A stretch of DNA of 52,359 bases from a bacterium. Lineage in GTDB: Bacteria > Krumholzibacteriota > Krumholzibacteriia > LZORAL124-64-63. A program made the position numbers and the translations under genes. The stretch lies in the NCBI GenBank assembly GCA_018829565.1, contig JAHJTW010000022.1, positions 1-52,359 of the forward strand, read 5' to 3'. Positions 1,669-48,358 of the stretch are shown here, one piece after another. Each line of letters starts with the position of its first letter. The stretch's first letter is position 1. Under the pieces are notes generated by a model. That model was not told where the DNA came from. It was given only the letters and a program-made list of their open reading frames with translations, and did not search any database.

Positions 1669-1684
1669 CCGCGATCGGGTGTCT

Positions 1685-6253: not shown

Positions 6254-8104
6254 CTACCCCCGCCAGCCATCGATCCACCCCCGGGGGCGCCGCAAAGGCA
6301 TGCTCGGCTCCGGCTCGGCCGCGACGGGCACCTCGCGCAGGTTGGCCAGGGCTGCCGCGCGTTCGGGCAGGGACTTCACGAACGACGGGCCCAGGATGTA
6401 GAGGGCGGCCAGGCAGTAGACCTCGAGGTCGAGGGCCTCGTTGCGATCGCGGGTCTTGACCCACTCACGGACCGTGCCGCGGTTCTTGATCCACTTGCGG
6501 ATGGCCTTCTCGGCGGTCAGCTGGGCGGTGTACTCCTCGTCGATCCATTCGGGCAGATGGCAGTAGCCGGGCCCCGGCGACCCGATGCGTAAACGCGAGT
6601 AGACGATCTCCTTGCCGGTGTCGACGCAGAGGGTGAACAGCTTCGCCCGATAGCGGTTGTGATCGGACGGTCGGCCCACGAGAGGCTTGCCACGCTCGGA
6701 GCCACCACGGACGGCGAACACGCGCCGGTCGATCCGAGCGCGGCAGAACCGGTAGACCTGCTCGGAATGGTGGCCGCCGCTGTCGACGGCGACGCAAGAG
6801 ATCGGGACCTTCTGGCCGCTCTCGTGCGTGAACTCGGTCCGCAGGAATCTGTCGAGGTCAAGCCAGACCTGGTCGCGCCCCGGATCGCCGTGGAACTGGG
6901 AGAAGGCGACAAGCCAGGACTCCTCGGCTGCGCCGTACCCCTTCACCGCGCACTCGAGGCGGTCGCCCTGCACGTCGACCGCGGCCACGAGTACGCCTAC
7001 GCCAGTAGGCACCTCGGCTTCGTATCGCTCCGCTCGGGCCAGCAGGCTGTCTGGGTCGACGGTCTCCCCGCGCTCTTCCCAGGTCTCACCCAACACGCTG
7101 TTGACCCAGTTCTTCAGCCGGAGCGGGTTCTCCTTGGACTCCACGAATTCAGCGACGGTGGCCGACCACGGCAGCCAGCCCAGGGGCGAGTAGAGACTGG
7201 GGAGGTGGAACCCGATCGTCTCGCCGTTGCCCTTCGCGGTGGGGCGCCATTGCCCATGGTTGAGCATCTGTGGCTTGAAGCGCTCCTCGATCAGGACGCC
7301 GCAGTGGACGCAGGCCAGGGCTGCGGTCTTGGGGTCGTCGTCGCGCCAGCGGATGTTCTCCCACCGTATCCAGTCGAAGTGGCCGCACTCGGGGCAGGGG
7401 ATGAAGAACCGTCGCTGATCGGAGGCCAGGAATTCCCGCTCGATCCGAGAGATACCCTTGATCGTGGGCGTCGAGACCAGGAACACCTTGCGCCGGGAGT
7501 ACAGGGGCCCCGTGGTGCGCTTCTCCGCAAGCGCGATCGGGTCGCCTTGGCCGTCCACGTCGCCCGGGTACTCGTCGATCTCGTCGCAGAAGAGCCAGCG
7601 GATCGGCATCGACTTGACGCCGGTCGCGGAGTTCGAGCCGGTCAGGAACAGGACCCCGCCAGGGAATTCCTTGATCAGGAGGCTGTTGCCGCCGTCGCGT
7701 GACCGGGCTTCGCGGACCAGCTCGTGCAGGACGGGCGTCGTGGCGATCATGGGATCGAGGCGCTGCCGGCTGAACCGCCGGGCCTCATCCACCGTGGGGC
7801 GTAGAACGAGGATCGGCCCCGGCGCATGGTGCATCACGTACCCAAGCCAGTTGTTGCCGGCCTCGGTGCCGCCCAGCTGCGAGCCCTTCATGAACACGAC
7901 CCGGCGAGCCGGCGACCGCGGACCCAGAGCGTCCATGATCTCGCGCAGGTAGGGCGTGGTGTCGGTGTGCCAGTGCACCGCGGCATGGCCAGAGCGGTTG
8001 CCCAGGACGCGGTGCTCGTCGGCCCACTCGCTGACCGTCAGTCGCGGCTCCGGCCGCCAGCCCGCCCGGTAGGCGGTCTCGTAGGTGTCACGGCCGTTCT
8101 GCAT
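6254..8104 (-). CDS. terL: Terminase large subunit, lambda GpA family
   Basis: LTVSEWADEHR, TPYLREIMD, VVFMKGSQLGGTE (Walker A-like), LFCDEID (Walker B), STPT, CPECG, N.VLGETW, AVDVQ, RNEALD..VY. Confidence 0.95.
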   Translation of the reverse strand: MQNGRDTYETAYRAGWRPEPRLTVSEWADEHRVLGNRSGHAAVHWHTDTTPYLREIMDALGPRSPARRVVFMKGSQLGGTEAGNNWLGYVMHHAPGPILVLRPTVDEARRFSRQRLDPMIATTPVLHELVREARSRDGGNSLLIKEFPGGVLFLTGSNSATGVKSMPIRWLFCDEIDEYPGDVDGQGDPIALAEKRTTGPLYSRRKVFLVSTPTIKGISRIEREFLASDQRRFFIPCPECGHFDWIRWENIRWRDDDPKTAALACVHCGVLIEERFKPQMLNHGQWRPTAKGNGETIGFHLPSLYSPLGWLPWSATVAEFVESKENPLRLKNWVNSVLGETWEERGETVDPDSLLARAERYEAEVPTGVGVLVAAVDVQGDRLECAVKGYGAAEESWLVAFSQFHGDPGRDQVWLDLDRFLRTEFTHESGQKVPISCVAVDSGGHHSEQVYRFCRARIDRRVFAVRGGSERGKPLVGRPSDHNRYRAKLFTLCVDTGKEIVYSRLRIGSPGPGYCHLPEWIDEEYTAQLTAEKAIRKWIKNRGTVREWVKTRDRNEALDLEVYCLAALYILGPSFVKSLPERAAALANLREVPVAAEPEPSMPLRRPRGWIDGWRG

Positions 8105-8651
8105 CCGCGATCTCCTGGCAGATCCGCTCGATCTCTTCCTCGAGGATGCGCTGGACCTCGGCTGGTTCGTCGACCGCGGCCAGGACGGAGGCCAGGCGCT
8201 CGGGCAGGGCGATCAACTGGTCGCGCGCCTTGCGGGCCATGTTGAACGCGCCGAGACGCACCTCGTCGGCGCGGACGAGGGTGCCACGCTTGCGGTCCAG
8301 TTCGAGCTTCGCCAGCTGCGCCTGGTACAGTTCGCGAGCGGCGCGGGCCTTGGCGTAGCCCGTGGCCGTCGATGGGCCGCCGACGATCTCATCGGCTCCG
8401 CCCATGTCCATGGGTTCGGATGGCTCGCCCGGGGTCTTGGTCTGCCTGGGGTTGCCCGTGACCCGGTTGCGGGGCTTGCTCTGGTCGGTGTTCTCCTGCC
8501 ACTGCTGGTCGGCGAGCGCGGGATCGATCTTCCCGTTCACGGTGGAGATGCGGCCTGCTTTGACGGCACGCTGAACCGCGACGTGGGTCACGCCGCGCCT
8601 GCGGGCGTACTCGCGCTGGGAGATCAGCTCCTTCTTCGCTCCCCCGGCCAC
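8088..8651 (-). CDS. terS: Terminase small subunit (Nu1-like)
   Basis: N-terminal winged HTH ISQREYARRRGVTHVAVQRAVKAGRI, coiled coil YAKARAARE..AQLAKLEL; overlaps the terL start. Confidence 0.85.
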   Translation of the reverse strand: MAGGAKKELISQREYARRRGVTHVAVQRAVKAGRISTVNGKIDPALADQQWQENTDQSKPRNRVTGNPRQTKTPGEPSEPMDMGGADEIVGGPSTATGYAKARAARELYQAQLAKLELDRKRGTLVRADEVRLGAFNMARKARDQLIALPERLASVLAAVDEPAEVQRILEEEIERICQEIADAERP

Positions 8652-8654
8652 CGC

Positions 8655-10151
8655 CTACTCATCCCGAGCAGCCCCGCGGTCAGCGGCGACCGCGTCGAAC
8701 GTGCGACCGTCCCCGTCGAGCGTGGCCTTCTGGCCGGTGGCCTCCTGCCACCGCATCACGATCACGTCCGTGTAGGCGGGGTCGAGTTCCATGAGGAAGG
8801 CATGCCGTCCGGTCTGATCGGCACCCATCAGGGTCGACCCACTGCCGCCGAACAGGTCGAGCACGTTCTGGCCGGGCTTCGACGAGTACTGAATGGCGCG
8901 CACGGCCAGCTCGACCGGCTTCTCGGTCAGATGGACCATGCTCTGCGGGTTGACCTTCTTGACCGCCCAGACGTCGACGGCGTTGGTCGGGCCGTAGAAG
9001 TTGTGGCCCGCTCCTTCGCGCCAACCGTAGAACGCCCATTCGTGATTACCCATGAAGTCCTTGCGGGTGAGCACGGGGTGCTCCTTCACCCAGATGACCG
9101 CCTGGCTGAAGTACAGGCCGCAGGCCTTCAGCACCGGAGGGTAGTTGGCGCAGTTGGCGTAACCGCCCCAGATGTAGAACGAGTGCCCGGGCTGGAGCAC
9201 GCGGGCGATGTTCCCGAACCACGCCAAGAGCATCTCGTCGAAGGCCTCGTCCGAGACGAAGTCGTTGGCCAGGGGGCGGTCCTTGGGGCGCATCTTCCCG
9301 GTGGGCTTGGACTTGGTCTTGTGCCGCGCGAGGTCGAACCCCTGGTGGTGCATGCCCTTGGCGTCGGAGGCCTCGACCGCGCTCTTGGTGGACGGCGGGA
9401 AGCTGGACAGGCCGGCGGCGATGGCGTTGTTGGAGCGCGGCTCGACCTTCACGTTGTAGGGCGGGTCGGTGTTCACGAGGTGGATCTTCTGGCCGCCGAG
9501 CAGCCGATCGACCGATGCGGGATCGCAGCTGTCGCCGCACAGAAGGCGGTGGTTGCCCAGGACCCACAGGTCGCCCTGCCGGCTGGTGGGCTCCTCGGGA
9601 GGCTCCGGGGCGGGGGCATCTTCGACGGTCTCGTCGTCGAGGAGATCGTGCAACTCGTCCAGATCGAAGCCAGTCAGCTCGAGGTTGAAGTCGAGGTCCT
9701 CGAGGGCCTTCAGTTCCTCGGCGAGCAGGTCCTCGTCCCAGCCTGCATCGAGGGCAAGGCGGTTGTCGGCGATGACGTAGGCCCGCTTCTGGGCCTCGGT
9801 CAGGTGGGTGAGCTCGATCACCGGGACCGTGGTCATGCCCAGCTCGCGGGCGGCCAGGAGCCGGCCATGGCCCGCGATGATGCCGGCCTCGCCGTCGACC
9901 AGGATCGGGTTGGTCCAGCCGAACTCGAGCAGGCTGGCGGCGATCTTGGTGATCTGCTCGGGGCTGTGCGTGCGCGGGTTCCGCTCGTAGGGGCGGAGCC
10001 GGTCGATGTTCCAGTGTTCCAGTTTCCCGGGCAGGATCACGGGAGACTCGGATCGCGCGGAATCGCCCCTAGGAGCCGTTTCGGGCGCGTTTGAAGACTT
10101 TTCGGACTTCTCGGAACTGGAACAATTGGTGTCGGTGGAAACTTGTTTCAT
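8655..10151 (-). CDS. ParB-like N-terminal domain fused to N6/N4 DNA methyltransferase
   Basis: ParB-N LRPYERNPRTH..FGWTNPIL..IIAGHGRL.AA; MTase DPPY, HLTEKPVEL, VLDLFGGSGSTL. Confidence 0.92.
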   Translation of the reverse strand: MKQVSTDTNCSSSEKSEKSSNAPETAPRGDSARSESPVILPGKLEHWNIDRLRPYERNPRTHSPEQITKIAASLLEFGWTNPILVDGEAGIIAGHGRLLAARELGMTTVPVIELTHLTEAQKRAYVIADNRLALDAGWDEDLLAEELKALEDLDFNLELTGFDLDELHDLLDDETVEDAPAPEPPEEPTSRQGDLWVLGNHRLLCGDSCDPASVDRLLGGQKIHLVNTDPPYNVKVEPRSNNAIAAGLSSFPPSTKSAVEASDAKGMHHQGFDLARHKTKSKPTGKMRPKDRPLANDFVSDEAFDEMLLAWFGNIARVLQPGHSFYIWGGYANCANYPPVLKACGLYFSQAVIWVKEHPVLTRKDFMGNHEWAFYGWREGAGHNFYGPTNAVDVWAVKKVNPQSMVHLTEKPVELAVRAIQYSSKPGQNVLDLFGGSGSTLMGADQTGRHAFLMELDPAYTDVIVMRWQEATGQKATLDGDGRTFDAVAADRGAARDE

Positions 10152-10166: not shown

Positions 10167-10215
10167 CGAAAGCCGAGGTCGCCGGCACCCGCGGCTGATA
10201 GCCCCGGAAGTACCT
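10167..10215 (-). other. Candidate lambda-like cos site (cosQ-cosN-like)
   Basis: Minus strand AGGTACTTCC...TGCCGGCGACCTCGGCTTTCG, compared with recalled lambda GGGTCCTTTCC...GGGCGGCGACCTCGCGGGTTTTCG; lies upstream of the MTase-terS-terL operon. Confidence 0.6.
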
Positions 10216-10279: not shown

Positions 10280-10945
10280 TCACAGGCCTCTTCCTTTCGA
10301 CCTCGCGATGGCGTTCAGCACTTCCTTCTCCATCTCCTCACGGAACCAGCGGTCGGACTCCTTCTTGGCGGTCTCGACGAACCGGAGCCGCGGTTTGAGC
10401 TTCTTGCCGCTAGTGAAGGCGTAGACTAGGCGCGAGGCTCCGGGTCCCGTGCGCTGGAAGATGCCGACCTCGGGTACGAGGTAGGTCTTGGTGCGCGTGA
10501 CCCCGACACGGCGACGGCCGGTCTTGGTGAGATCGAAGCGGAGACGGCGGACGCGCAGCTCGGGCGGGACGGGCTGCGTGAACCGCGGGCGGGCGGGTCC
10601 GCCGACCACAGGCTCGGCCACACGCCTGGCCCCCTGCGTGAACGGTTTGCGTTCGGCTCCGCGCTCGAACGCAGAGAGCAGCAGACGAGGCTTCTGCCCG
10701 ACACCGATCTCGGCGTACGGCCTGCCCTGCTTCACGTTGGCAAACGGCTTGATGACAGCGGCCTGGCGGCGGATGAACTCCTTCTTGCGGATCGTGAACT
10801 CTTCCTCGACGCGCCGACGTTCGACAGCCTGGATCCGCTTGGCCGTGTTGTTGATGGCGTTGACGACGGCGTAGGCTAGACGGCGCTGGCCATTCTGCAG
10901 ACGCAAGACCAGGGGAGCGGAGTCGATCTGCAGGTCGATCCTCAT
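10280..10945 (-). CDS. Basic phage protein, lambda gpZ (tail completion)-like
   Basis: Start re-called at ATG 10945; A.VNAINNTAKR..., basic composition, ends F..EM.KEVLNAIARSK. Confidence 0.55.
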   Translation of the reverse strand: MRIDLQIDSAPLVLRLQNGQRRLAYAVVNAINNTAKRIQAVERRRVEEEFTIRKKEFIRRQAAVIKPFANVKQGRPYAEIGVGQKPRLLLSAFERGAERKPFTQGARRVAEPVVGGPARPRFTQPVPPELRVRRLRFDLTKTGRRRVGVTRTKTYLVPEVGIFQRTGPGASRLVYAFTSGKKLKPRLRFVETAKKESDRWFREEMEKEVLNAIARSKGRGL

Positions 10946-11250
10946 CGCGGGCCTCCGGAGTCGCCTTCGGGCTGCGTGATCTGCCGGCTGTGTTGGTAGA
11001 TGGCCTCGAGGGTTAGTCGGCCTCGGGACATCTCGACGAGGGCCATGGCGCGGGCCGGACGGGGCGTGTGGCCCTGGAGCCATTCATAGACAGCCTGGTT
11101 TGTGACGCGCAGGGTGGGGTCGTGGGCCAGGCCGGCGACGATGCGGGGCACGCCGAAATCGGCCACCCAGCGGCCGAACTCGGTCTCCCAGCGATCGGGG
11201 ACGCGCTTGAACCTGCCTCGTTCAAGCGCTTCGTTACGGAACATCGTCAC
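10942..11250 (-). CDS. Cro-like HTH DNA-binding protein
   Basis: RVTNQAVYEWLQGHTPRPARAMALVEMS..RLTLEAIY pattern; stop overlaps the next ATG. Confidence 0.55.
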   Translation of the reverse strand: MTMFRNEALERGRFKRVPDRWETEFGRWVADFGVPRIVAGLAHDPTLRVTNQAVYEWLQGHTPRPARAMALVEMSRGRLTLEAIYQHSRQITQPEGDSGGPR

Positions 11251-11388
11251 TCCCGGGGTGGACCTCAGGTCCGCCTACAGCGGATAGAATGCTTCCTTTG
11301 GTTATCTACCCGGGGGATGGTCGATGTGTCGGAGTGGGACTTCGCGATGTGAACGTCGTTCTGGGTGAGCACTGCTACCGATCGCTGT

Positions 11389-11994
11389 TTACCGCGCGGC
11401 AGCTCTCGCTTTAGCCGCATCTCGAAGGATCTCGAGTGCTTCGCGTATCACATAGAGACCGATTCCAAAGCCAACCACAAGATCGGGATAACGCGAGCCG
11501 GTCATGAATACCAGAAGCGACGCGACCAGTACGGCCAAGTTGGCAACGACATCAGCGCGCGTGAAGATCCAGGTAGCTCGAAGATGGACCTCGCCGTTGC
11601 GGTGCTTGGAGAGCAATCGAAGGACGATGGTGTTCACGATGAGGGCTGGTGTTGCCAGGATCGCCATGATCAGGCTTTCGGGCTCGCTGCCCGTGATGGC
11701 TCGGCCAACGATGGCTAAGCAGGCACCGATGCCGAGCAGGAGAAGGATAGTACCGCTGGCCGTTGCCGCACGAGCCTTAAATAGCGACCCACGGCTCACG
11801 GCAGCGATGGCGATCCCATAGGCAGACGCGTCGGCGAGCATATCGAGAGAATCCGCGATGAGCCCGGAAGATTCCCCGATGACCCCGCCGATCAACTCGA
11901 CTACGAACATCGTCGCATTCAACGCGAGGGCGAGCCTGAGGGTCCGACCCGCCTCGACCGATGTCACTTCTGCTGTGCACCCACAGTCACTCAT
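11389..11994 (-). CDS. Short cation diffusion facilitator (CDF) transporter lacking the C-terminal domain
   Basis: SGLIADSLDMLADASAYG, HLRATWIFTRADV..N, D..VG..I; six hydrophobic segments. Confidence 0.88.
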   Translation of the reverse strand: MSDCGCTAEVTSVEAGRTLRLALALNATMFVVELIGGVIGESSGLIADSLDMLADASAYGIAIAAVSRGSLFKARAATASGTILLLLGIGACLAIVGRAITGSEPESLIMAILATPALIVNTIVLRLLSKHRNGEVHLRATWIFTRADVVANLAVLVASLLVFMTGSRYPDLVVGFGIGLYVIREALEILRDAAKARAAAR

Positions 11995-12065
11995 TGATCC
12001 CACTCCTTGTGGGGATAGTGGTTCGAATCAAGAGGCTGCCGTGCTCGGATAATGGACGGCCGGGC

Positions 12066-12983
12066 CTACGACGTAGAATTGCCGCACGGTCCGCTTCTAT
12101 CCAAACAACTTCCCTGCGGCTCGAATTCGAGGGTGGTATGAGAGATCTCGAATTCTTCGCGAAGTAGTTTCTTCAGGGTTCCTTTGATTGTCTCTGAATC
12201 CTCAAAGCCGACCATCGAAACGACATGGGCTTCGAGCGCGCGATTGTGTTCATCTATCTGCCACACGTGGACGTGGTGGACTCCATGGACGCCGGAAACG
12301 TTGGCCATTCGTGCGGTAAGCCGGTCGAGGTCGACCCCGACCGGGACGCTGTCCATCAGGATGCGGACCGACTCTGCCATCAGCTTATATCCCTGAAACA
12401 GGATGTAGCCGGCCAGGAGCAGGGTGGCAATGAGATCAGCGACGTACCATTGAAACACCAGCACGAGGATGCCGACGCAGATGACGACGAGCGATCCGAG
12501 GGCGTCCGCGACGTTGTGGACGAAGGCGGCCTTGATGTTGATGTTCTCTTTGGCCATCGAGAAGGTCATCAGGGCAGTGGCGAGATCCACGACAAGAGCG
12601 AAGCTCGCGACGATGACAACGATCCACCCGTCGATGGGCTCGGGCTGCAGGAAGCGGGCGACCGCTTCATAGACGAGGTAAAGGCCGACAATGATCAGTG
12701 TCGTCGTGTTGATCAGGGCACCGATCACCTCGGCTTTCCGGTAGCCGAAGGTGCGAACCTTGTCTGCCGGCCGACGCGCAATTCGACGCGCAATCAGAGC
12801 GATACCAAGAGACGCGGCGTCGTTCAGGTTGTGCAAGGCGTCCGCCACCAGGGACAGGCTGCCCGAGATGACCCCGCCGACCACCTGGGCGCCGGTCAGC
12901 AGGACGTTGACAACGATGGCGGCAAGCAGTCGACGGTCTCCGGTCTGTTCAGGGTCCGGGTGATGCGAATGTCCGTGTCCCAT
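12066..12983 (-). CDS. czcD: CDF family Co/Zn/Cd efflux transporter
   Basis: His-rich N-terminus, SLSLVADALHNLND, TFGYRKAEV.GALIN, NIKAAFVHNVADALGS, VHHVHVWQ. Confidence 0.93.
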   Translation of the reverse strand: MGHGHSHHPDPEQTGDRRLLAAIVVNVLLTGAQVVGGVISGSLSLVADALHNLNDAASLGIALIARRIARRPADKVRTFGYRKAEVIGALINTTTLIIVGLYLVYEAVARFLQPEPIDGWIVVIVASFALVVDLATALMTFSMAKENINIKAAFVHNVADALGSLVVICVGILVLVFQWYVADLIATLLLAGYILFQGYKLMAESVRILMDSVPVGVDLDRLTARMANVSGVHGVHHVHVWQIDEHNRALEAHVVSMVGFEDSETIKGTLKKLLREEFEISHTTLEFEPQGSCLDRSGPCGNSTS

Positions 12984-13013
12984 GGTGGCGGCCCTTTCTC
13001 GTCGCGGACGGTC

Positions 13014-13352
13014 TCACACGGCAGCTTCACCGGTCTCGCCGGTGCTGATACGAACCGCGTGCGAAATGTCCGTGACGTAAATCTTCCCATCCCCCTTCAA
13101 ACCGGTGTGTGCCGCCTGCTCGATTGCTGCCATGATGTCCGCGGCGAGGTCATCCCGGCAGAATACCTCGATCTTCACGCCTTTTCGATAGCTGAACGTT
13201 TCGGAGTCGGACGCGTGTTCCGTGCCGGCCCAGCCCGCACCAAAGCCGCGGCAGTCCACGATGCTCATCCCCGTCACCCCCTCGATGCGATGGAGCGCCG
13301 AGGTAACGTCCGCCAGCTTGTGCGTCTGGATGTAGGCTTTGATCTCCTTCAT
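13014..13352 (-). CDS. P-II family (GlnB-like) signalling protein associated with metal efflux
   Basis: MKEIKAYI...V..AL..I.GVTGM....GFG; KIEV; TG..GDGKIYV.DI..AVRI.TGE.G..AV. Confidence 0.88.
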   Translation of the reverse strand: MKEIKAYIQTHKLADVTSALHRIEGVTGMSIVDCRGFGAGWAGTEHASDSETFSYRKGVKIEVFCRDDLAADIMAAIEQAAHTGLKGDGKIYVTDISHAVRISTGETGEAAV

Positions 13353-13371
13353 GACTGCTCTCCTTCATGGC

Positions 13372-16300
13372 TTAGACCTCGTGCTCAACCTTGACCGCAA
13401 ACCACTTGTAGAAGGCGGGGATCACGAGCAGGGTGAGAATCGTGGATGTTACCAGGCCTCCGACGACAACGGTGGCCAGCGGACGCTGGACCTCGCTGCC
13501 GGTTCCGTGCGAGAAGAGCAGCGGAAACAGACCGAGCGCCGTGGTGATTGCGGTCATCAGGACCGGGCGCAGGCGCTGGCACGCGCCCTGGATGGAGGCC
13601 TCGGCGACGGGTAGCCCGTCGCGCAGCAGCTGGTTGAGGTAGGTCACCAGCACCATGCCGTTCTCCAGGGCGATGCCGAACAGGGCGATGAAGCCTACTG
13701 ATGCCGGGACCGAAAGGTTTTGGCCCGTCAGCCACAGCGCGACCACGCCGCCGACCAGGGCCAGCGGGATGTTCAGCAGGATCAGGATGGAGTTGCGGAT
13801 CGAACCGAAGTTGCCGAACAGCAGGAGGAAGACCAACAACAGCGTCGCCGGAATAACCACGGCGAAGCGGCGGTTCGCTTCCTGCTGCAGGCGGAACTGT
13901 CCGCCCCAGGTCACGAGGTAACCCGGCGGCAGTTCGACCGAGGCATCGATCGCGTCCTGTGCGTCGGCGACGAACGAGCCGATGTCGCGATCGACGACGT
14001 TGCACTGCACGGAGATGAACCGCTGGTTGTCCTCGCGGGTGATCTGCCGGGGTCCGACGATCTCCTCGATGGAGGCCAGTTGGTCCAGCGGCACCCGGGC
14101 CCCGTCCGGGGCGGTGATGAGGATGTGGCCGATGCTCTCGGCGGTCTGGCGAGCCTCGGGGACGAAACGGACCAGGATGTCGAAGCGACGGATCCCCTCG
14201 TAGATCTGTCCGGCGACCTCGCCGCCCACCGCGGCCCGGATGACTCCCTGGACCTCGTCGACGTTGATCCCGTAGCGGGCGATCGCCTTCCGGTCGATAC
14301 GCAGGAGCAGCTGGGGAGCGCCGCTGACCTGGTCGACCTGGACGTCGGCGGCGCCGGGAACGGAGCCGACGACGGCCGCGATCTCCGCCGCGCGTTCCTT
14401 GAGGACGTCGAGATCGTCGCCGAAGATCTTCACGGCGAGCTCGGCGCGGACGCCCTCCAGGAGTTCATCCACCGTCATCTCGATGGGTTGGGTCAGGTTG
14501 ACCAGGACGCCGGGCACGTTGCCGACCTCGTCGCGGATGACGTCCTCGATGGCTTCCTGGCCTCCGGCGACGCGCCACTCGGATTCAGGACGGAGGATCA
14601 CGTACATCTCGGCGCTGTTGATGGGATCGGTGTGTGCCCCGACCTCACCGCGGCCGATGCGGGTAACGACCTCCCGGACCTCGGGAATCGCCATCAGGCG
14701 CCGCTCGACGATCTGCGCCGTCCGCTGGCTCTCGGTCAGCGAGATCGAGGGCGCCATCGTCAGACGGGCGACGATGGTCCCCTCGCGCAGCTTGGGCGTG
14801 AACTCCGAACCGAGGCGAGGAACCACCGCTGCGCCGGCCACCATCAGAACCACCGCGATTGCGATGGCCGCCCAGCTACGGCGGACGAAGAACTGGACGA
14901 CGGGCCGATACGGTTTCAAGAGCCAGCGTACCACCAGGGCTTCACCGTCACCGTCGGAGTCATCTCGCCGGCGGACCCGCATCAGGAGGCTGCTCAGGGT
15001 CGGCGCCAAAAGCAGGGCGAAGATGAGCGATCCCAGCATGGCCATGGTCACGGTGTAGGCCAGCGGCCGGAAGGTTTTCCCTTCGACGCCCTGGAGCGTG
15101 AACAGGGGCACGAAGACGAGAATGATGATGGTGATAGCGAACAGGATGGGACGGCCGACCTCCGCGCAGGCGAGCGAGATGGTCCGCAGACGGGTCATGT
15201 CCGGCGGTGCGATCCGCAACCGGCGGTCGATGTTCTCCACCATGACGATGGTACCGTCGACCATCATCCCGATTGCGATCGCCAGGCCGCCGAGCGACAT
15301 GAGGTTGGCCGAGACGCCGAAGCGTTCCATCAGCAGGAACGCAAAGAGCACCGAGAACGGCAGCGAGAGGGCGACCACGATGCTCGGGCGCAGACCGCCC
15401 ATGAAGACAAGCAGGACGATCGTCACCAAAATGACACCCTGCAATAGCGCGTTGATCACGGTCTTGACGGCGGCCTCGACGAGCGATTTCTGCTCGTAGT
15501 AGGGAACGATGCGCACCCCATCGGGCAGGATCTTGTTGATCTCCTCGAGCTTGGACTCGACACGGCCGATCACGGTGGACGAGTTGGCGCCGAATAGCTT
15601 GACCACCTGTCCGGAAACCACCTCTCCGGTGCCGTTGCGGGTCTGCAGTCCGCGACGAATCGCGCCGCCGGATCCGATCTCCGCAAGATCGGACAGGAAG
15701 ATGGAGGTCCCGTCGACGGTCTTGACGACGATCGAGCTGAGATCCTCCATGCCGGTCGCCAGCCCGACGGAACGGACGATGAACTCTTCGGAGTTCTTCT
15801 CGATGAACTGCGCGCCGACGTTGAGGTTGTTCGATCGCACGCAAGCGATCACATCGTCCAGGGTGACGTCGTAGCGCAGGAGCTGCTCGGGTCGAATCCT
15901 GATCTGATACTGTTTCTCGAAGCCCCCGATGCCGAGAACCTCGGTAACCCCGGGCACGGTCTGCAGGTGGAACTTGATCAGCCAGTCCTGGATCGTGCGC
16001 AGATCCTCCAGCGAGTACTCGCCGGTCGTGTCTTCCAGGTAGTAGAAGAGGACGAGCCCCATGCCGGTGGAGATCGGGCCCATCTGGGGGTCGCCGAATC
16101 CTTCGGGGATCTGTTCTCGGGCTTCTTGCAGTCGCTCGCCGACGAGTTGCCGGGCGAAGTAGATGTCCACATCGTCGCGGAAGTAGACGTTGACCACCGA
16201 CAGTCCGAAGTTGGATACCGATCGGACCTTGGCGGTGCCCGGCAGACCGGTCATGGCGGCTTCGACGGGGAAGGTGACGTACTTCTCGATCTCCTCGGGC

Positions 16301-16470
16301 GCGAGGCCCTCGGTCACCGTGAAGACCTGGACGAGGTTGGGCGAGACGTCCGGGAAGGCGTCGACCGGCAGGCGGGTGTAGCCGGCGTAGCCGGCGCCCA
16401 TCACGATCAGCGCGATGATGAGCACCAACAGGCGGTTCTTGAGGCCGAATTCGATCATTCGTTCGAGCAT
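13372..16470 (-). CDS. czcA: CusA/CzcA heavy-metal efflux RND permease
   Basis: 1032 aa; LPVDAFPDV, APEEIE..VT.PVE, NLMSLGGLAIAIGMMVDG..V.VEN, RLRPVLMTA, GSEVQRPLATVVVGG. Confidence 0.96.
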   Translation of the reverse strand: MLERMIEFGLKNRLLVLIIALIVMGAGYAGYTRLPVDAFPDVSPNLVQVFTVTEGLAPEEIEKYVTFPVEAAMTGLPGTAKVRSVSNFGLSVVNVYFRDDVDIYFARQLVGERLQEAREQIPEGFGDPQMGPISTGMGLVLFYYLEDTTGEYSLEDLRTIQDWLIKFHLQTVPGVTEVLGIGGFEKQYQIRIRPEQLLRYDVTLDDVIACVRSNNLNVGAQFIEKNSEEFIVRSVGLATGMEDLSSIVVKTVDGTSIFLSDLAEIGSGGAIRRGLQTRNGTGEVVSGQVVKLFGANSSTVIGRVESKLEEINKILPDGVRIVPYYEQKSLVEAAVKTVINALLQGVILVTIVLLVFMGGLRPSIVVALSLPFSVLFAFLLMERFGVSANLMSLGGLAIAIGMMVDGTIVMVENIDRRLRIAPPDMTRLRTISLACAEVGRPILFAITIIILVFVPLFTLQGVEGKTFRPLAYTVTMAMLGSLIFALLLAPTLSSLLMRVRRRDDSDGDGEALVVRWLLKPYRPVVQFFVRRSWAAIAIAVVLMVAGAAVVPRLGSEFTPKLREGTIVARLTMAPSISLTESQRTAQIVERRLMAIPEVREVVTRIGRGEVGAHTDPINSAEMYVILRPESEWRVAGGQEAIEDVIRDEVGNVPGVLVNLTQPIEMTVDELLEGVRAELAVKIFGDDLDVLKERAAEIAAVVGSVPGAADVQVDQVSGAPQLLLRIDRKAIARYGINVDEVQGVIRAAVGGEVAGQIYEGIRRFDILVRFVPEARQTAESIGHILITAPDGARVPLDQLASIEEIVGPRQITREDNQRFISVQCNVVDRDIGSFVADAQDAIDASVELPPGYLVTWGGQFRLQQEANRRFAVVIPATLLLVFLLLFGNFGSIRNSILILLNIPLALVGGVVALWLTGQNLSVPASVGFIALFGIALENGMVLVTYLNQLLRDGLPVAEASIQGACQRLRPVLMTAITTALGLFPLLFSHGTGSEVQRPLATVVVGGLVTSTILTLLVIPAFYKWFAVKVEHEV

Positions 16471-16484
16471 GGCGTCATCTCCAA

Positions 16485-17471
16485 TCAGTGCGCGTGACCG
16501 CCGCCGAAGGATCCCTTGCCGAGTTCCGCCTTGAGCGTGAACCCACCCTGGGATACGTAGTTTTCACCGGCTGCGAGGCCCGAGACGATCTCGAGCGTGT
16601 TCTCATCCGACCGTCCGACGGTCACGGGTCTGGGCATGAAGCCCTCCGGGGTCTGAACGAAGACGACGTCCTGATCTTCGAAGTGCTGTAGCGCCGTCCG
16701 CGGGATGGCGACGGGCACGACGAAGCTTTCGAGGAGGATTCGGGCCGTGATGAACGTGCCGGGACGCCAAGTGCCTCCCGGATTGGGCAGAATGACCCTC
16801 GCCAAGGCGGTTCTGGTTTCCTCGTCGATGACAGGAGCGACATAGGAGATCGCGCCAGTCACGGCCGGGTGGGCGTGTCCCCCGGAGATCTGGACATCCT
16901 GGCCGACTGCCACTGTGCTGATGTCCCGCTGATAGACCGTGATGTCCGCCCAGACGGAGCTGAGATCAGCGACGACGAAGGCGGCATGCTCCCGCGAGAT
17001 CGCCTCGCCAAGCGTAATGTGCTTGGCGATGACCGTGCCGGCGATGAGGGTCTTGACCTCGTAGGGAGACAGACTCTCGTCGCTTTCGATGACGGCGAGA
17101 ACCTGACCAGCCGCGACTTTGTCGCCGACTTGAGCACGCACGTCGGTCACGATGCCGGAAAAGCGTGGGACGATGTGGGCGAGCATGTTGTCGTTGGTCT
17201 GGATCTCACCGGGTAGGTCGACGCTGCTCGTGAGGGTGGCGTTGCCGGCTTCGGCGACGACGATGCCGAATTCACGCATCTCTTCGGCGCTGAGACTCAC
17301 GATCTCCTCGTGTCCTTCTTCGTCGTGCCCCTGTTCGTCGCCGTGGGCCTCGTGACCCGGTTCCTGCGCCAGAGCGGACAGTTGCGGCATCGCCAGGGAG
17401 AGGGCCAGCAGAACAAGTGCGGCCTGATTCACGAACCTGCGTTCTAGGATGGGAAAGCTCGTCGGTTTCAT
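16485..17471 (-). CDS. czcB: RND membrane fusion (periplasmic adaptor) protein
   Basis: Signal region, His-rich HEAHGDEQGHDEEGH, barrel-sandwich hybrid segment, DEETRT..AR..LPN..G.WRPG.F. Confidence 0.92.
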   Translation of the reverse strand: MKPTSFPILERRFVNQAALVLLALSLAMPQLSALAQEPGHEAHGDEQGHDEEGHEEIVSLSAEEMREFGIVVAEAGNATLTSSVDLPGEIQTNDNMLAHIVPRFSGIVTDVRAQVGDKVAAGQVLAVIESDESLSPYEVKTLIAGTVIAKHITLGEAISREHAAFVVADLSSVWADITVYQRDISTVAVGQDVQISGGHAHPAVTGAISYVAPVIDEETRTALARVILPNPGGTWRPGTFITARILLESFVVPVAIPRTALQHFEDQDVVFVQTPEGFMPRPVTVGRSDENTLEIVSGLAAGENYVSQGGFTLKAELGKGSFGGGHAH

Positions 17472-17472
17472 G

Positions 17473-18807
17473 TTACGGACGCTCCTGGTTGTTCTCGACC
17501 TGACTCAGAGGCCCGGCGACGACGCGCTCGAGCTCGGCGAGGGCAATGTGGTAGCTGGCGAGGGACGCGATATGACGCTCCCGCAGATCGAGATAGGTCG
17601 TGCGGACAGCTAAAACATCGGTGAAGTTGAAGAGGCCTTTCAGGTAGGCACTCTCGGCGGTCGCCATGGCTTCCTCGGCGGCCGGTAGGATTTCTTCTCT
17701 GAGCGTGGTTGCGGCCTTGAAGGCGGCAGAGAGGTCAGCGTACGCCGATGCCAGCGCCGCCTGCGCGGTACTGGTTGCTGCCAGACGTTCCTTCTCGACC
17801 TTGGCCAGTTCGAGAGCGGCGGCCTGGACGTTCCCCTGATTCCGGTTGGCAACCGGCAGCGGAATCGCGATTCCGGCCACGAAGGCGTTGTCTCCGGATT
17901 CCTCAAGACGCCTGAATCCGCCAGAGGCGACGAGGTCGATCTTCCCCAGGGAACGCTCCAGATTCAGGGATGCCTCGCGCAGGGATTGCTCGGTCGCCCA
18001 GCGTGCGATGTCGGGGTTCGTTGTCAGGCGTTGCTCCAACATTGACGCCGTCGGGGGCGGTGCGACCTGTTCGAGGTCGCCCACGGCGCGGCCGTATTTC
18101 GGCTGGTCGGAACCCCATGTCGTCGCCAACCGGACCCGGGCGGCAGTCAGTGCGAGTGCCACGGTTTCGCGGTCCATTTCCGCGGTGGCCAGGGCGATCC
18201 GGGCACGCGTCCGTTCGATCGGCGAAGCTGCTCCGGCCTCGACACGCCGGCCGACGGCGACGAGGTCCTGCTTGGCAGTCTCGATCAGGTCATCCGCGAG
18301 CGCGATCCGCAGTTGAGCGGCGACTACCTCGACGAAGGCCCGTGACACATCGCTGAGGACCTCAAGACGGACAGCTTCGTAGTCCCAGGTCGCCAGTTCG
18401 CGTTCGAAGCGGGCGACTTCTCGACGATTGGACCTCTTGCCGCCAAGCTCGAACAGCTGGGCCACCGAAAGGGTGAGTTCGGAACCGCCGAAGCCCGACA
18501 GGTCACCGGATCCCGCGAAGTTCTCCACTTCGAAAGCGAGTTCCGGGTTGGGGCGCAAGGCGGCCTGGAGAGTGCGCGCATCCCGAATCCTGCGTTCGAA
18601 ATCGTAAACCGCCAGGCGAGGGCTACGGGTCAAGGCCAGCGCACCGGCCTGAACCGCGGTGATATCCTCGCCGTCCGTAATCTCCGGGACGGGGACAGGG
18701 TGAATGGCGGTGGTGTCGGGTGGCGAGGAATCGGCGAACACCGGCGTGACCAGCAATGTCACGATCGCCAACGCTTGCCCGAGGCGAAAGCGCCCAAGCA
18801 GTTTCAT
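17473..18807 (-). CDS. czcC: TolC-like outer membrane efflux protein
   Basis: Signal peptide, PNPEL..E.EN, ELGGKR..R, IPLPV.NRNQG.., AY..G....DVL. Confidence 0.92.
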   Translation of the reverse strand: MKLLGRFRLGQALAIVTLLVTPVFADSSPPDTTAIHPVPVPEITDGEDITAVQAGALALTRSPRLAVYDFERRIRDARTLQAALRPNPELAFEVENFAGSGDLSGFGGSELTLSVAQLFELGGKRSNRREVARFERELATWDYEAVRLEVLSDVSRAFVEVVAAQLRIALADDLIETAKQDLVAVGRRVEAGAASPIERTRARIALATAEMDRETVALALTAARVRLATTWGSDQPKYGRAVGDLEQVAPPPTASMLEQRLTTNPDIARWATEQSLREASLNLERSLGKIDLVASGGFRRLEESGDNAFVAGIAIPLPVANRNQGNVQAAALELAKVEKERLAATSTAQAALASAYADLSAAFKAATTLREEILPAAEEAMATAESAYLKGLFNFTDVLAVRTTYLDLRERHIASLASYHIALAELERVVAGPLSQVENNQERP

Positions 18808-18900
18808 GGTTTGAATCCTTTTCCGAGATCAGCGCAGCCTAAAGACGTGGCACGACGAATCGGCCCGACGAATCATCCAGGGTTGTCTTCAGCGGTGAGG

Positions 18901-19251
18901 CTAGCAGCGGAGAGGCGGAAAGCCGGAGGGCAGGGGCAGCGGAAGCGAGACGCACGGGTCAGCCACAAAGGGCGCAGCGTCACCAGGCGTCGAGGCGATT
19001 CCGCCGAATTCGACGAGAGCGTGGACGCTGGCATCTATGTCCAAAGACAAATCACCTTTGCACCGGCTGTCGGGCAGGGGGACCACGGTGATGTTGCAGG
19101 GGTCACTCGAACAATGAACTTCGTGTTCGCAGGGTGTCTCTGGACAGGAAGGGCAGAAATGGTCCAGAGCGCCGGCAAGGCATGCCGTCGGCGCCAGGAG
19201 GAGCGACCAGAGAGTCGCAATCAGAACTGTTTTCATAATGCCCATAGGCAA
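18901..19251 (-). CDS. Small exported Cys/His-rich protein, CzcI/DUF2946-like
   Basis: Signal-like N-terminus, HFCPSCPETPCEHEVHC..C motif, Pro-rich C-terminus; first gene upstream of czcC. Confidence 0.6.
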   Translation of the reverse strand: MPMGIMKTVLIATLWSLLLAPTACLAGALDHFCPSCPETPCEHEVHCSSDPCNITVVPLPDSRCKGDLSLDIDASVHALVEFGGIASTPGDAAPFVADPCVSLPLPLPSGFPPLRC

Positions 19252-19350
19252 TCAAGATACCTTCTGTCTTATAATTCGCAAGCTCGTCTTTCCGAACAGT
19301 TACGGCCGCTTGGACATCGCCGGGCAATATTAGTTCCCAATCTCCATTGA

Positions 19351-21801
19351 TCAGTTACGTTCAACATTCCACTCGATCTCGCGAATCGCCTCATGAGTCC
19401 GTCCCGCCCCGTATGTCCGAATGATCACCCGCAGATGGTCGTTGAGTCGCGCGAGCCCCGACTCCGCGATCTCCGTCGCCTCGAGGTAGGTCCAGGACGT
19501 GCCCGTCAATCCCGACTCGGTGTGAACCAGCGTGCCGAGCTCCCCGTAGACCAGGACGTCGTATTCTGTGCCCGGCTCGGATGACGTCGTCTTGCCGGAG
19601 TCGACATAGCTCCAGGTCCCGAGCCGATTCCGGTGCGACCAGGATACTGTCAGTTCGCCCGTGATGGACGCCGGGTAGCTCTCTCCGTTGAAGCGCAGGT
19701 CGGTAGGGCAATAGACCTTTACTGACCGCGCTGGCGTGGTCGCCACGACTTGCGATGTCGGGCACGACGTGAACGGAAACTCGCTCTGGTTGTTGTAGGC
19801 CTGAAATCGGATGTCGTTGTAGACGTTGATGGTCGGAGGCACCGGCCCGCGGATGTTCACGATCTGGTTGCCGTAGGAGATGAACCACACCCGCGTCCCG
19901 GCCGAGAATGCAGTCGGCGCAGTATCGAGGCACCCCCGCGCGATGACCTGAAGCGTGATGTTGCTCTCGCCCTGCACTACGTTCTGGAACGCGATGAACT
20001 CCTCCACCCCCTCATGGGCCACCCATGCGACGCTCACCCCGAGGGAAAAGTCGGGCGCGCTGACCGACTCGACGAGGTCGGTGTCCAGACCCGAGGCGAC
20101 GACGATCTCGCTCGTGAGTTCGTCGATCGCAGTGCTGAGAACCCCTGATGGAGTGAAGAACGGGATATCGACCGGTGGCGCCCAGCCGCCCGCGCCGTCA
20201 GCCACATAGGCCCGGTATCCGAGGGAGACCCCGGTCACCCCAGCAGCGGCGAGCGTGATGGCCAGCTGCACATCGGCACCTAGGCTTCCGTAATCCTTCA
20301 CCGCCTCATAGGGTGCGGCCAGGGCAACTTGGTCGGTCAGTGCCGGGACGTCACCGGAAGGGTCTTCCCAACCGGACGCTGGCGGAGTCGAGTAGCCAGT
20401 CCAGTCCACGGCGAAGATATCCTCCATGGCTTCGATCTCGATCTTCCCGGAGTCGAGGCGGCCAGTCCCCACACGGACCACCCGGCAAGCCATACCGGCA
20501 ATCCCCAGCGGGTCCCAGACGAGTTTGAATACCGCCCCGGGCCGGAACGCCCAAGCCGAGCGGTCAGCCTCGATGGTGATCGTAGCCAGCGGATAGGCCA
20601 GAGCCGCCAGGGCACGGGCTGCGGCCTGCTGGGCAGACGTCGCATTCGAGAGCCCACGAAGGGTGAGATCCTGGAGTGAGACCTCGCCGCCTTGCACCTC
20701 GATCCCAGCGAGGTCCTGGGCCTGGGCGGTCTTCTCGATGAACCCGGCGTCACGGCTGACGTAGCCGATTCGCACGGTGTTCTTGAGGTCACCCCACGAC
20801 GGCCGGGCAAACGACTTTACCGTGCACGAGTCCGCATCGAGCACCGGGATCGCCTCGGGATCGTAGTCGTACCGGACCAGGCGGATCGTCAGAAGGCCGG
20901 ACGCCGGTTCCACGTACATGACGCCGTCGACGTGGCGCAGGATCTCAAGGACGAGGTCCTTCGCTGTTGTGCCGCGATCCTGGAGCATGGAAAGTCCGAG
21001 GCCTTCGTCGGCCAGCGTCTGTCCAACCGAGCGAAACGCGGCAACATCCAGAAACCCCACCGGCAACCCGAGACCGTTCTCCGAAGACGGCGAGATCAGG
21101 ATGTCGTAGATCATGGCTGCGGGATTGGCGTCGCCATCGATGTTGTGGGCTCCGCCGGTGAGACCGAGGCCATTGGGGCAGCGCCGGACGACGAACGAGA
21201 CGGCCTTGATGTAGGGGCTCGTCCCCACGTAGACGCGCCGGAATACGGCGTAGCAGACCCTTCGCCAGGCGGGCAGGCTCTCCCCGATACGGGCCTCGAG
21301 GTAGGAGTCCGCCGGCTGGGTGGGAGTCCCGCGGTAGACGTAGACGCTGCCTTTGACGCCGCCTTCGGAGTCCTCGCCGCCGAAGAAGCCAGGGGCGTTG
21401 ATGCTGATCTGGGTGAGATCCGGAACGTGGGCGTAGCCTGCAGAAGGCCGCCTGTCGTCGAACCGGATCTGCAGGACCTCGTCGATCTCACCACTGCATA
21501 GTACCAGCTGGATGCCGAGGTAGTACTTGTAGCCGGTGGTGATTTCCTTTGAGGAGAACAGCCCCGTCTTGACCTTCTCCTTGATGGCCTGGATGCGCAG
21601 ATCGCCGTACCAGGTCACCATGGGTCCGGAGAGCTTGCAGGTCCCCCAGACGACGGGAATGGTCCGGCCCTCGCCGATCGTGGGGAACTGGAAGTCGCCG
21701 AGGCTGGACGGTGTCGGCTTGTCGAACTGCGGCTTGGGGCGCAGGACCTCGTACAGGACCGTGCCGACGATGTAGACCAGGGCCATGATCCAGAAGGCCA
21801 T
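19351..21801 (-). CDS. Phage tail tip / central tail fibre protein (gpJ/megatron-like)
   Basis: Start re-called at ATG 21801 (TGATG overlap); FQFPT..EGR.IPVVWGT, NPAAMIYDIL, F.PG.VFKL.W..LGI. Confidence 0.85.
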   Translation of the reverse strand: MAFWIMALVYIVGTVLYEVLRPKPQFDKPTPSSLGDFQFPTIGEGRTIPVVWGTCKLSGPMVTWYGDLRIQAIKEKVKTGLFSSKEITTGYKYYLGIQLVLCSGEIDEVLQIRFDDRRPSAGYAHVPDLTQISINAPGFFGGEDSEGGVKGSVYVYRGTPTQPADSYLEARIGESLPAWRRVCYAVFRRVYVGTSPYIKAVSFVVRRCPNGLGLTGGAHNIDGDANPAAMIYDILISPSSENGLGLPVGFLDVAAFRSVGQTLADEGLGLSMLQDRGTTAKDLVLEILRHVDGVMYVEPASGLLTIRLVRYDYDPEAIPVLDADSCTVKSFARPSWGDLKNTVRIGYVSRDAGFIEKTAQAQDLAGIEVQGGEVSLQDLTLRGLSNATSAQQAAARALAALAYPLATITIEADRSAWAFRPGAVFKLVWDPLGIAGMACRVVRVGTGRLDSGKIEIEAMEDIFAVDWTGYSTPPASGWEDPSGDVPALTDQVALAAPYEAVKDYGSLGADVQLAITLAAAGVTGVSLGYRAYVADGAGGWAPPVDIPFFTPSGVLSTAIDELTSEIVVASGLDTDLVESVSAPDFSLGVSVAWVAHEGVEEFIAFQNVVQGESNITLQVIARGCLDTAPTAFSAGTRVWFISYGNQIVNIRGPVPPTINVYNDIRFQAYNNQSEFPFTSCPTSQVVATTPARSVKVYCPTDLRFNGESYPASITGELTVSWSHRNRLGTWSYVDSGKTTSSEPGTEYDVLVYGELGTLVHTESGLTGTSWTYLEATEIAESGLARLNDHLRVIIRTYGAGRTHEAIREIEWNVERN

Positions 21802-22601
21802 CAGTCGATCCTCCCGGAGAAGGGGTTTCGGCCCGGCAGGCGCGACCAGCCCAAGTGGTTGATCAGGTTGCTGAACTTGTTCTGGCAGGTGGCCTCGAGG
21901 TGATCGCAGCCCCAGTAGGCCCACACCTGGTCGAGGGACGACAGCCCAGGCATCGGCGAGATCAGCGTGACGGTGTCGCCTTGGTGGTCGACGATGAAGC
22001 GGGTCTCGCCGGTGGAGGATTCGAGACGGCCCCCACGGAACCACTGGTCAGGGCGCAGGGCGAACCCGCTCGAAGTGACCGTCGCGCCCGCGACCGAAGT
22101 GACCGTGACCTGATCGCGGCACGCTCCGGGGTCCGCACCGCATGCCGCCGAGTAGAGCACATGGTTGCAGGGCGTCTGCATGGCCAGGATCGGCACCGTG
22201 CGCGCCAGCATGGCCATCAGGCTCGCGCCGGTGAGTATGGCCTCGGACTCTTCGAAGCGGGCGCGGATCACCTTGCCGCTGAAGATCGTCACCGCGAGGG
22301 ACTCCTCGCCGCGGTGGGCGCGGTATACGGTGACCCAGACCGGCGTGGACGGCAGGTCGCCGATGAACAGAGCGGCCACGGGGTTGGGCCGCGGCAGCGT
22401 CAGGTCGATCGTCTCGCCCGTGTCCTCCTGGGAGAAATCGAGCTCGCTGCGGGTGATGGCCTCAGGTGCGAACACTCCGGCGGGCAGCGTGATCGCCCGA
22501 TCGGCCGACGTGTAGAGCCACAGGTTGCTGCCCTGGGCGAACCGGAAGCCCTCGACGGGCTGACCCAGGTACCGGCTCTTCTCCCTGGCGTCGTAGGTCA
22601 C
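21801..22601 (-). CDS. Tail hub protein, DUF2163 / Phage_BR0599 family
   Basis: GTG start at 22601; QTPCNHVLY...CG, WFRGG, GCDH..ATC..KFSN..N..G...LP..NPF. Confidence 0.88.
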   Translation of the reverse strand: MTYDAREKSRYLGQPVEGFRFAQGSNLWLYTSADRAITLPAGVFAPEAITRSELDFSQEDTGETIDLTLPRPNPVAALFIGDLPSTPVWVTVYRAHRGEESLAVTIFSGKVIRARFEESEAILTGASLMAMLARTVPILAMQTPCNHVLYSAACGADPGACRDQVTVTSVAGATVTSSGFALRPDQWFRGGRLESSTGETRFIVDHQGDTVTLISPMPGLSSLDQVWAYWGCDHLEATCQNKFSNLINHLGWSRLPGRNPFSGRID

Positions 22602-34556: not shown

Positions 34557-34589
34557 CCGACCAATCTAAATGTCATTTAGATTGGTCGG
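34557..34589. repeat. 33-bp palindrome (16-bp perfect arms, 1-nt centre) between divergent head genes
   Basis: CCGACCAATCTAAATG-T-CATTTAGATTGGTCGG. Confidence 0.95.
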
Positions 34590-34617
34590 GTCCTGAGCGC
34601 GGTGTCACCGTGGGCGC

Positions 34618-38924: not shown

Positions 38925-38997
38925 CTCCTTCAATCGATTGCGACTCGGCACGGGGACCGCCCCCAGACGGAGGCGGGGCTGAGCATGCATTTCTGTC

Positions 38998-39025
38998 TTG
39001 ACAAAAACTATCAGTAACTGACAAT
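38998..39025 (+). promoter_or_regulatory. Sigma70-like promoter with an internal palindromic operator candidate
   Basis: TTGACA-N16-GACAAT; TCAGT-A-ACTGA palindrome at 39011-39021 in the spacer. Confidence 0.55.
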
Positions 39026-39073
39026 AAGCCCTCGTCATCTATCCGAGCCGCTTCCCCGCAGTCGGAGTTCTAC

Positions 39074-45952: not shown

Positions 45953-45963
45953 CATGCCTTCCA

Positions 45964-47844: not shown

Positions 47845-47938
47845 GTAGTACCTGCCATGTTTAGCATCTGAAACGCTTTAGGAACGACCCGCTTTCGGGC
47901 ATAATCGCATGTGGCGTGATTCGAATCGTTATGGGAGC

Positions 47939-48357: not shown

Positions 48358-48358
48358 A

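Follow-up and report, generated by a model that had tools for sequence, protein, structure and literature searches.

The window that we analysed is the whole of contig JAHJTW010000022.1 (our C162), 52,359 bp in length, and its interval 11341-19350 holds a seven-gene heavy-metal efflux cassette set among the late genes of a phage. The explanation that we favour, with a probability that we put at about 80%, is that the cassette is an accessory ('moron') module of a temperate lambda-like siphovirus of the cos type, occupying a fixed slot in the phage genome, copied from an operon of the host family, moved by recombination and serving metal tolerance in the lysogen. Judged from its sequence and from that of its relatives, the module is real and well delimited, and it is probably functional. 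PHROG and Pfam profile matches mark the contig as phage-like over its full length; the metagenome-assembled genome (MAG) from which it comes has 354 contigs and 4.39 Mb at 67% GC and is 89%-complete. An earlier reading of this DNA, made from its letters without database searches and here called the sequence-only reading, had placed seven co-oriented efflux genes between the last tail gene and the packaging block. Open reading frames (ORFs) and profile matches confirm the genes and their position, and all of them lie on the minus strand.

The seven genes fill the 8 kb from 11341 to 19350 in the same orientation as the tail gene upstream and p102, p221, the ParB-methylase gene, TerS and TerL downstream. 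The gaps between the cassette genes are 1-99 bp, and no other credible ORF lies in the interval. A 99-bp intergenic spacer (19252-19350), 100% identical in the related phage of genome G035, precedes the first gene and is a candidate cassette promoter. That gene (18901-19251) encodes a small secreted Cys/His-rich protein (111-116 aa) that has a signal peptide as well as a CxxC...C.H..H.C cluster. Searches of Pfam and NCBIfam gave no match for it, and a homologue stands in the same position in loci L024 (51% identical) and L021 (100% identical). It had been described as CzcI-like; homology to CzcI was not detectable, and we call it a positional analogue of CzcI, by position and size only.

Next come a CzcC-like outer-membrane factor of 444 aa (17473-18807; PF02321 OEP, E = 1.5e-39), a CzcB-like periplasmic adaptor of 328 aa with a His/Glu-rich N-terminus (16485-17471; HlyD_D23, E = 1.6e-33) and an inner-membrane pump of 1032 aa of the heavy-metal efflux (HME) branch of the RND superfamily (13372-16470), the first two lying directly upstream of the pump with gaps of 1-14 bp. 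The adaptor passes TIGR01730 (113 bits vs a cut-off of 94.9). The best named-family matches of both proteins in NCBIfam are subunits of the IhpABC exporter (NF045679/NF045680), with the adaptor matching IhpB at 295 bits and the outer-membrane factor matching the divalent metal exporter subunit IhpA at 237 bits, but these scores lie far below the equivalog cut-offs of 450 and 650, so that neither protein is a member of that family. The pump is followed by a 112-aa protein of the PII superfamily (13014-13352; PF00543, 65 bits vs a cut-off of 25), which is not a GlnB/GlnK equivalog (GlnB models 74 bits vs a cut-off of 202), is kept in both the phage and the chromosomal versions of the operon and is probably regulatory. 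The last two genes encode cation diffusion facilitators (CDFs). One is a 305-aa protein of the CzcD/ZitB type (12066-12983; PF01545, E = 2e-45, with ZT_dimer; TIGR01297, 248 bits) that scores below the cut-off of the ZitB model itself at 196 bits. The other, CDF2, is a short protein of 204 aa with the membrane domain only (11389-12003; PF01545, 71.7 bits); it barely passes TIGR01297 (82.6 vs a cut-off of 82.35) and lacks the C-terminal dimerisation domain. CDF2 is present in the window and in L024 (90% identical at the amino acid level) and absent from L021, G035 and contig G080:C107. Pfam thresholds are passed by the outer-membrane factor, the adaptor, the PII-like protein and both CDFs.

The slot contains no regulator ORF: czcRS and czcN are not present, and the small upstream ORF matches no profile. 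Nor does it hold any ORF for a transposase or integrase, and a search for direct or inverted repeats at its ends found none. This bears out the sequence-only reading, and a transposon or integron origin was rejected on this ground. Neither a NiCo (czcD) riboswitch nor any other Rfam RNA element was found in 10-20 kb.

The limits of the cassette were placed by comparison with related phages. A search with the 897-aa protein of the last tail gene (19351-22044, minus strand), a host-specificity or tail-tip protein (phrog_1101, E = 2e-210; Pfam Phage-tail_3), identified relatives in three sets: 9 of 61 related genomes, 21 species-representative loci and 20 IMG/VR contigs. The protein is full length in relatives, at 77-98% identity. 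It covers only positions 3-769 of the 1405-position PHROG profile, and we considered whether the cassette had cut the gene; this was rejected, as all relatives end at residue 896-897. Nucleotide homology runs through the tail gene and ends at 19351-19369, at the stop codon, after which no sequence is conserved across relatives. It restarts at 11253-11340 in about 20 relatives, within the ~90-bp leader of p102. This conserved leader of the packaging operon (11251-11340, minus strand) forms the right border of the slot, and its motif CGACACATCGAC-N-GGGTAGATAA at 11302-11331 is kept in ~13 relatives and occurs once in the window. Because homology is lost at the tail-gene stop and regained at the p102 leader, 11341-19350 is, on this comparison, a slot for cargo that separates two late transcription units, and ~40 related phage loci have conserved late genes on either side of it. 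The borders at 11340 and 19350 and the description as phage cargo, both offered by the sequence-only reading, agree with these breakpoints against ~20 relatives.

The slot fits a moron or accessory hot spot, in that the same interval holds unrelated or nearly no cargo in relatives. Their slots contain unrelated DNA of 1.44 to >10 kb, the smallest being 1.44 kb. The same czc cassette is found, co-oriented, in the G035 phage (JACZKN010000092.1; CzcA 99.7% identical) and in G080:C107 (98%), neither with the second CDF, and a diverged co-oriented version is found in G031 (CAZJWO010000003.1), with CzcA at 86% and the second CDF at 90%. Other slots hold three further, distant HME-RND sets in antisense orientation, accompanied by a DmeF-equivalog CDF in L025, by a P1B heavy-metal ATPase and PII in L027 and L037, and by PII and an EamA transporter in L036; all of these pumps pass TIGR00914. 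By our own count an HME-RND system occupies roughly 8 of ~25 distinct slots, with at least four non-orthologous HME-RND cassettes in either orientation. The remaining cargo includes a K+/H+ antiporter and YaaC-like, HerA-type, radical-SAM, subtilase/beta-helix and type IX secretion (T9SS)-tailed proteins. The toxic expression during late transcription that had been predicted for a co-oriented cassette is speculation, as about half of the RND cargos are antisense and half co-oriented, with no clear orientation constraint. Related prophages of the same lineage are found inside contigs of 186 kb to 4.7 Mb.

Several smaller features of these loci were recorded. Ten relatives (L023, L028, L029, L031, L032, L041-L044 and L058) have a conserved TGTCCCC-N17-CCCCCCCTTTGTCC-TTTGGAGG element at the right slot edge, ~60-110 bp upstream of p102. 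The window is without it and has only the CGACAC...GGGTAGATAA motif; both are present in L023, L031 and L058. The packaging operon may have in this element a promoter of an alternative type. The IMG/VR contigs L046, L048-L051 and L054 end at or just past the tail-gene stop, which suggests that assemblies break at the hypervariable slot through strain heterogeneity. The 4.7-Mb contig G061:C1 (JADJQR010000001.1) carries two related prophage copies ~69 kb apart, at ~372.8-414.2 kb and ~441.9-449.8 kb, and a fragment at 2.78 Mb.

The origin of the operon was sought in the bacterial family to which the source MAG belongs. An HME pump match is present in 75 of its 91 genomes, and the identities form a continuum: relative to the window pump, CzcA is 92% identical in G105, 85% in G002 (same genus) and G025, 80-82% in G001, G004 and G088, and 74-76% in many others. 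These operon-bearing genomes are without the phage tail gene, except for a 30-residue fragment in G002, and without the p102 flank. In G002, a stretch on a 53-kb contig is homologous from czcC to czcD in the same order, including the PII gene, at 75% nucleotide identity; in G105 the homologous stretch begins at the gene for the small secreted protein. The window's own MAG has only a 65% paralogue of CzcA (C149/C193). By these matches in phage-free genomes, the cassette is derived from an operon native to the host bacterial family. In a maximum-likelihood tree of CzcA, a comparison with host copies that the sequence-only reading had put forward, phage and non-phage copies interleave: phage copies adjoin non-phage copies in two separate places, and the antisense phage pumps lie on long separate branches. 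These placements fit at least two captures of the native operon and at least two captures of other HME systems.

Evidence for movement between phages comes from identity along the alignment with the G035 phage, which sits in a different genus-level MAG. In sliding windows, 12.5-21.5 kb is 99-100% identical, with a dip to 96-98% at 15.5-16.5 kb, while the backbone outside this block is 82-95% identical. The 9-kb recombinant block consists of the 3' 2.1 kb of the tail gene and the cassette up to mid-czcD. Because the block is nearly identical inside a more diverged backbone, it indicates recent recombination. G080:C107 has two copies of the 3' end of the tail gene (8453-8656 and 9519-10010), one in the gene and one abutting the czc cassette, and the duplicated fragment looks like a recombination scar. 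Taken together, the identical block and the duplicated fragment point to recombination through conserved flanks, and they link the cargo to the probable receptor-binding part of the tail protein. A broader proposal, that this widespread phage family is a recurrent shuttle for whole metal-efflux systems and that a cassette, when swapped, takes the receptor-binding 3' part of the tail gene along, is one that we advance tentatively and rate somewhat below even odds; if it is true, host range and metal tolerance would pass on as a single linked unit.

Borders and blocks of this kind could also be produced by assembly, through a chimera of phage and chromosomal DNA, or of two phage strains, joined at 11.3 or 19.3 kb. 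The fragmentation of the source MAG into 354 contigs, the many related contigs that break exactly at the end of the tail gene, and the abrupt drop in identity to G035 inside czcD are all compatible with such an artefact. However, JACZKN010000092.1 shows the same join between tail gene and cassette at 100% identity, and G080:C107 shows it once more. In CAZJWO010000003.1 a single unbroken alignment of 8.6 kb crosses the join between CDF2 and p102, and G035 and G031 are separate depositions with different accession prefixes and isolate names. With both junction types recovered in independent assemblies, a chimera at either border, which the sequence-only reading had named as a hazard, is very unlikely.

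The assignment of the pump to its family is firm. It scores 1093 bits against TIGR00914, where the subfamily cut-off is 701.45, and it aligns end to end with solved HME pumps (residues 1-1025 to ZneA 1-1016, and 1-1023 to CusA). Together with the adjacent adaptor and outer-membrane factor, this identifies it as an HME-RND pump. Its best relative of solved structure is ZneA (702 bits), ahead of CusA (640 bits). A methionine triad is described for CusA-type (HME4: Cu/Ag) pumps in the CusA structure papers. We take Met573, Met623 and Met672 to be the functional residues of CusA and D602, E610 and D658 those of ZneA. At the CusA positions the window pump has R569, S619 and E, so the methionine triad is absent, and the residues aligned to the three ZneA positions are acidic, as in ZneA. 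The CzcA-type HME1/2 signature in transmembrane helix (TMH) IV is DFGX3DGAX3VEN (PMC3637150, citing Nies 2003). The corresponding motif of the window pump, AIGMMVDGTIVMVEN, reads AIGX3DGTX3VEN and fails this signature: the first Asp is replaced by Ala and DGA by DGT, with the second Asp and the Glu-Asn retained. The substrate is most likely a divalent cation. Which metals the pump carries we only infer, and the Zn/Co/Cd specificity that had been assigned to the cassette does not follow from a pump with neither the CzcA signature nor the methionine triad and an operon with no czcRS.

A pump without the canonical CzcA motif could instead serve the phage itself, for example by envelope remodelling for superinfection exclusion or by export of a non-metal substrate, and the slot in relatives often carries defence-like genes (YaaC-like, HerA, radical-SAM). 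We consider a purpose of this kind extremely unlikely: all slot RND pumps pass the heavy-metal subfamily model, they are accompanied by CDFs, a P1B ATPase and a DmeF-type CDF, partners that form a coherent metal-efflux theme, and the operon is kept in phage-free chromosomes.

The position of the cassette relative to the end of the packaged genome was assessed from a candidate cos site, CGGGTGCCGGCGACCTCGG, at 10173-10191 on the minus strand, within the 128 bp that separate p221 from the ParB/methylase gene. This motif is unique in the window. Across 16 aligned loci it is nearly invariant, with no locus differing by more than one change, in contrast to the variable intergenic DNA around it. It resembles GGGCGGCGACCT, which we take to be the lambda cohesive end, and the TerL is of the lambda gpA type. 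If CGGGTGCCGGCGACCTCGG is cos, the distance from the cargo to the right end of the virion DNA would be 1.1-9.2 kb. With the slot ~1.1 kb from this conserved lambda-like motif, the cassette would then lie near one packaged end, as the sequence-only reading expected.

In the model that we propose, the phage would infect Krumholzibacteria-type bacteria, and the slot would separate two late units, one running from capsid to tail and the other comprising p102, p221, cos, ParB/methylase, TerS and TerL. The module would be read in the order small secreted protein, outer-membrane factor, adaptor, HME-RND pump, PII-like protein and CzcD-type CDF, with the short CDF appended last. Entry into the phage and transfer between phages would most likely proceed by homologous or illegitimate recombination, with the conserved 3' end of the tail gene and the p102 leader as arms and without a transposase or integrase of the module's own. 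In the lysogen, the two CDFs would shift cytoplasmic divalent cations to the periplasm, from which the tripartite RND pump would then expel them across the outer membrane, and this would raise metal tolerance by lysogenic conversion. We infer both expression of the cassette in lysogeny and its packaging into virions.

Several observations weigh against this account. The contig ends lie inside phage genes, and the rest of the phage was not found in the bin, with no k-mer overlap at the contig ends; DNA homologous to the early region of G035 is also absent from the bin. With the extra low-GC region of 13 kb (39-52 kb), the genome may exceed 55-60 kb, which could strain a cos-type head. The cassette lacks a dedicated metal regulator, and a scan of the minus strand around it for consensus promoters and terminators gave none, although the consensus may not fit the host promoter type. 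Identity to G035 drops inside czcD at ~12.1-12.5 kb, which could be real recombination or a strain-level assembly mosaic. Finally, an RND cassette is absent from all ~10 IMG/VR relatives whose slot is resolved, and all RND-loaded copies come from MAGs.

Some of these points bear on the possibility that the window holds a domesticated or defective prophage, too large or otherwise unable to form particles, with the efflux operon an immobile island in decaying phage DNA. A contig that already measures at least 52 kb while lacking some of the early region, the presence of two large cargo regions (8 kb and 13 kb), the small or non-RND cargo in the resolved slots of IMG/VR relatives, and tail genes that read with internal TGA stops in some relatives would all suit such decay. 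On the other hand, all structural, packaging and lysis ORFs in the window are intact, the 99-100% identical block shared with the phage of a different genus-level MAG speaks for recent movement, and the cos motif and late leader are conserved. We regard decay as unlikely and favour the accessory module of a temperate phage. The phage backbone looks complete, with TerS, TerL, portal, protease-capsid, terminator, major tail protein, tape measure, tail tip, endolysin, holin, primase, helicase and serine recombinase.

Phages are usually thought of as carriers of small auxiliary genes, and a seven-gene, three-compartment efflux machine in a virion-gene region would mean that temperate phages can move complete metal-resistance systems. 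To our knowledge, the candidate phylum of the host has no cultured members. The comparative set serves as a concrete model for the acquisition and exchange of cargo in the absence of a transposase, and it is relevant to how resistance to metals, and resistance co-selected with it, spreads in sediments and soils. What the case contributes is detail, not a new principle.

The cassette resembles the czc operon of Cupriavidus (C.) metallidurans pMOL30 (czcNICBADRS) and ZneCAB (ZneA, PDB 4K0E) in the order of outer-membrane factor, adaptor and HME-RND pump, and it resembles czc also in the CzcD-type CDF downstream and the small secreted protein upstream. It differs from czc in being without czcRS and czcN, in the added PII-like gene and second short CDF, and in a pump with AIG-DGT-VEN instead of DFG-DGA-VEN in TMH IV; furthermore, the host here belongs to an uncultured lineage of the FCB type, and the cassette is carried by a phage, not a plasmid. 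Like lambdoid morons and the variable regions of P2 and P4, the slot is a fixed late-gene interval with interchangeable non-essential cargo, exact borders and no mobility gene. Unlike them, it holds a seven-gene, 8-kb envelope-spanning transporter and not one or two genes, and ion efflux recurs among its contents.

Metal efflux genes on phages have been described before: Paracoccus prophages carry ZntA, ZitB, AcrABCR and ArsB (PMC6536676), and Co/Zn/Cd RND genes are present on contigs of lysogenic viruses from soil polluted with chromium (PMC8240259). Burkholderia phage vB_E427 (PQ789820.1) has an RND adaptor and pump, 41% identical, between its Mor/GemA region and its tail genes. We discounted most GenBank 'phage' matches to CzcA, which are mislabelled bacterial contigs such as the 240-kb 'Acinetobacter phage MD-2021a'. 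The published phage-borne metal or RND efflux genes are, as here, auxiliary cargo of temperate phages, but they belong to a different phage lineage and host phylum, and here the borders, the source operon and repeated captures are resolved over ~40 loci. Phage-borne metal efflux is already documented; new here are the resolved comparison of the hot spot and the block in which cargo and tail gene are linked.

Downstream of the slot, on the minus strand, p102 (10942-11250) is a conserved small protein, 65-94% identical in relatives. It had been labelled a helix-turn-helix protein, and its Cro-like signal is weak (P22_Cro, E = 0.043), below the threshold. The next gene, p221 (10280-10945), matches 'minor tail protein' families in PHROG (phrog_1924, E = 5.6e-13; phrog_4688, E = 2e-4), and a Pfam search gave no match; with these as its only matches, the 'gpZ' label previously attached to it could not be retained. 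The protein has 221 aa in relatives, and the longer ORF listed here, of 267 aa, is likely an over-extension, with the probable start overlapping the p102 stop as ATGA at 10942-10945. Beyond the candidate cos site lie a ParB-nuclease/DNA-methylase fusion (8655-10151; phrog_498/620), TerS (8088-8651; phrog_57) and TerL (6254-8104; phrog_15, E = 2.6e-246), which is 45% identical to AcaML1 gpA, all on the minus strand. A helicase and a primase-polymerase occupy 28-3841 on the plus strand. A search of the window for tRNA genes found none.

On the other side of the slot, the minus-strand array continues 5' of the last tail gene with further tail-tip proteins, the tape measure (27005-29566), the major tail protein and tail terminator, and a protease-capsid fusion (32545-34527). 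The portal (34602-36692) opens a divergent unit on the plus strand that also includes a GH108 endolysin (38016-38510) and a holin with three transmembrane segments (38523-38924). We considered an inversion or misassembly at the divergence of capsid and portal (34.5 kb) and rejected it, as each of G035, G031 and G013 aligns across it in a single collinear stretch of 8.9 kb. Since 30.0-38.9 kb is collinear in all three, the divergent head module is genuine. The gap between the two divergent genes holds a ~34-bp palindrome (34557-34591) that matches both strands in G035, G031, G013, G003 and G029. The portal ORF has an N-terminal extension of ~200 aa without a match to the portal profile, overlapping a 185-aa ORF (34618-35175) in another frame with good GC content at third codon positions (GC3); the portal itself probably starts near 35.2 kb and is preceded by a small gene of its own.

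Homology to all relatives ceases right after the holin gene, at 38924 (window 38925-52359 vs G035:C249:1-23689). From there both the window phage and the G035 phage run on into long, unrelated regions of low GC (50-60%), which look like a second, larger variable region. In the window this region of 13 kb (~39-52 kb) contains methylase, Mrr and T5orf172 genes and ends in a serine recombinase cut by the contig end. Within it, a ~160-bp element at 44569-44727 recurs on at least five G035 contigs (84-85% identity) and on one G013 contig (79%), and looks like a small dispersed repeat or a miniature inverted-repeat transposable element (MITE).

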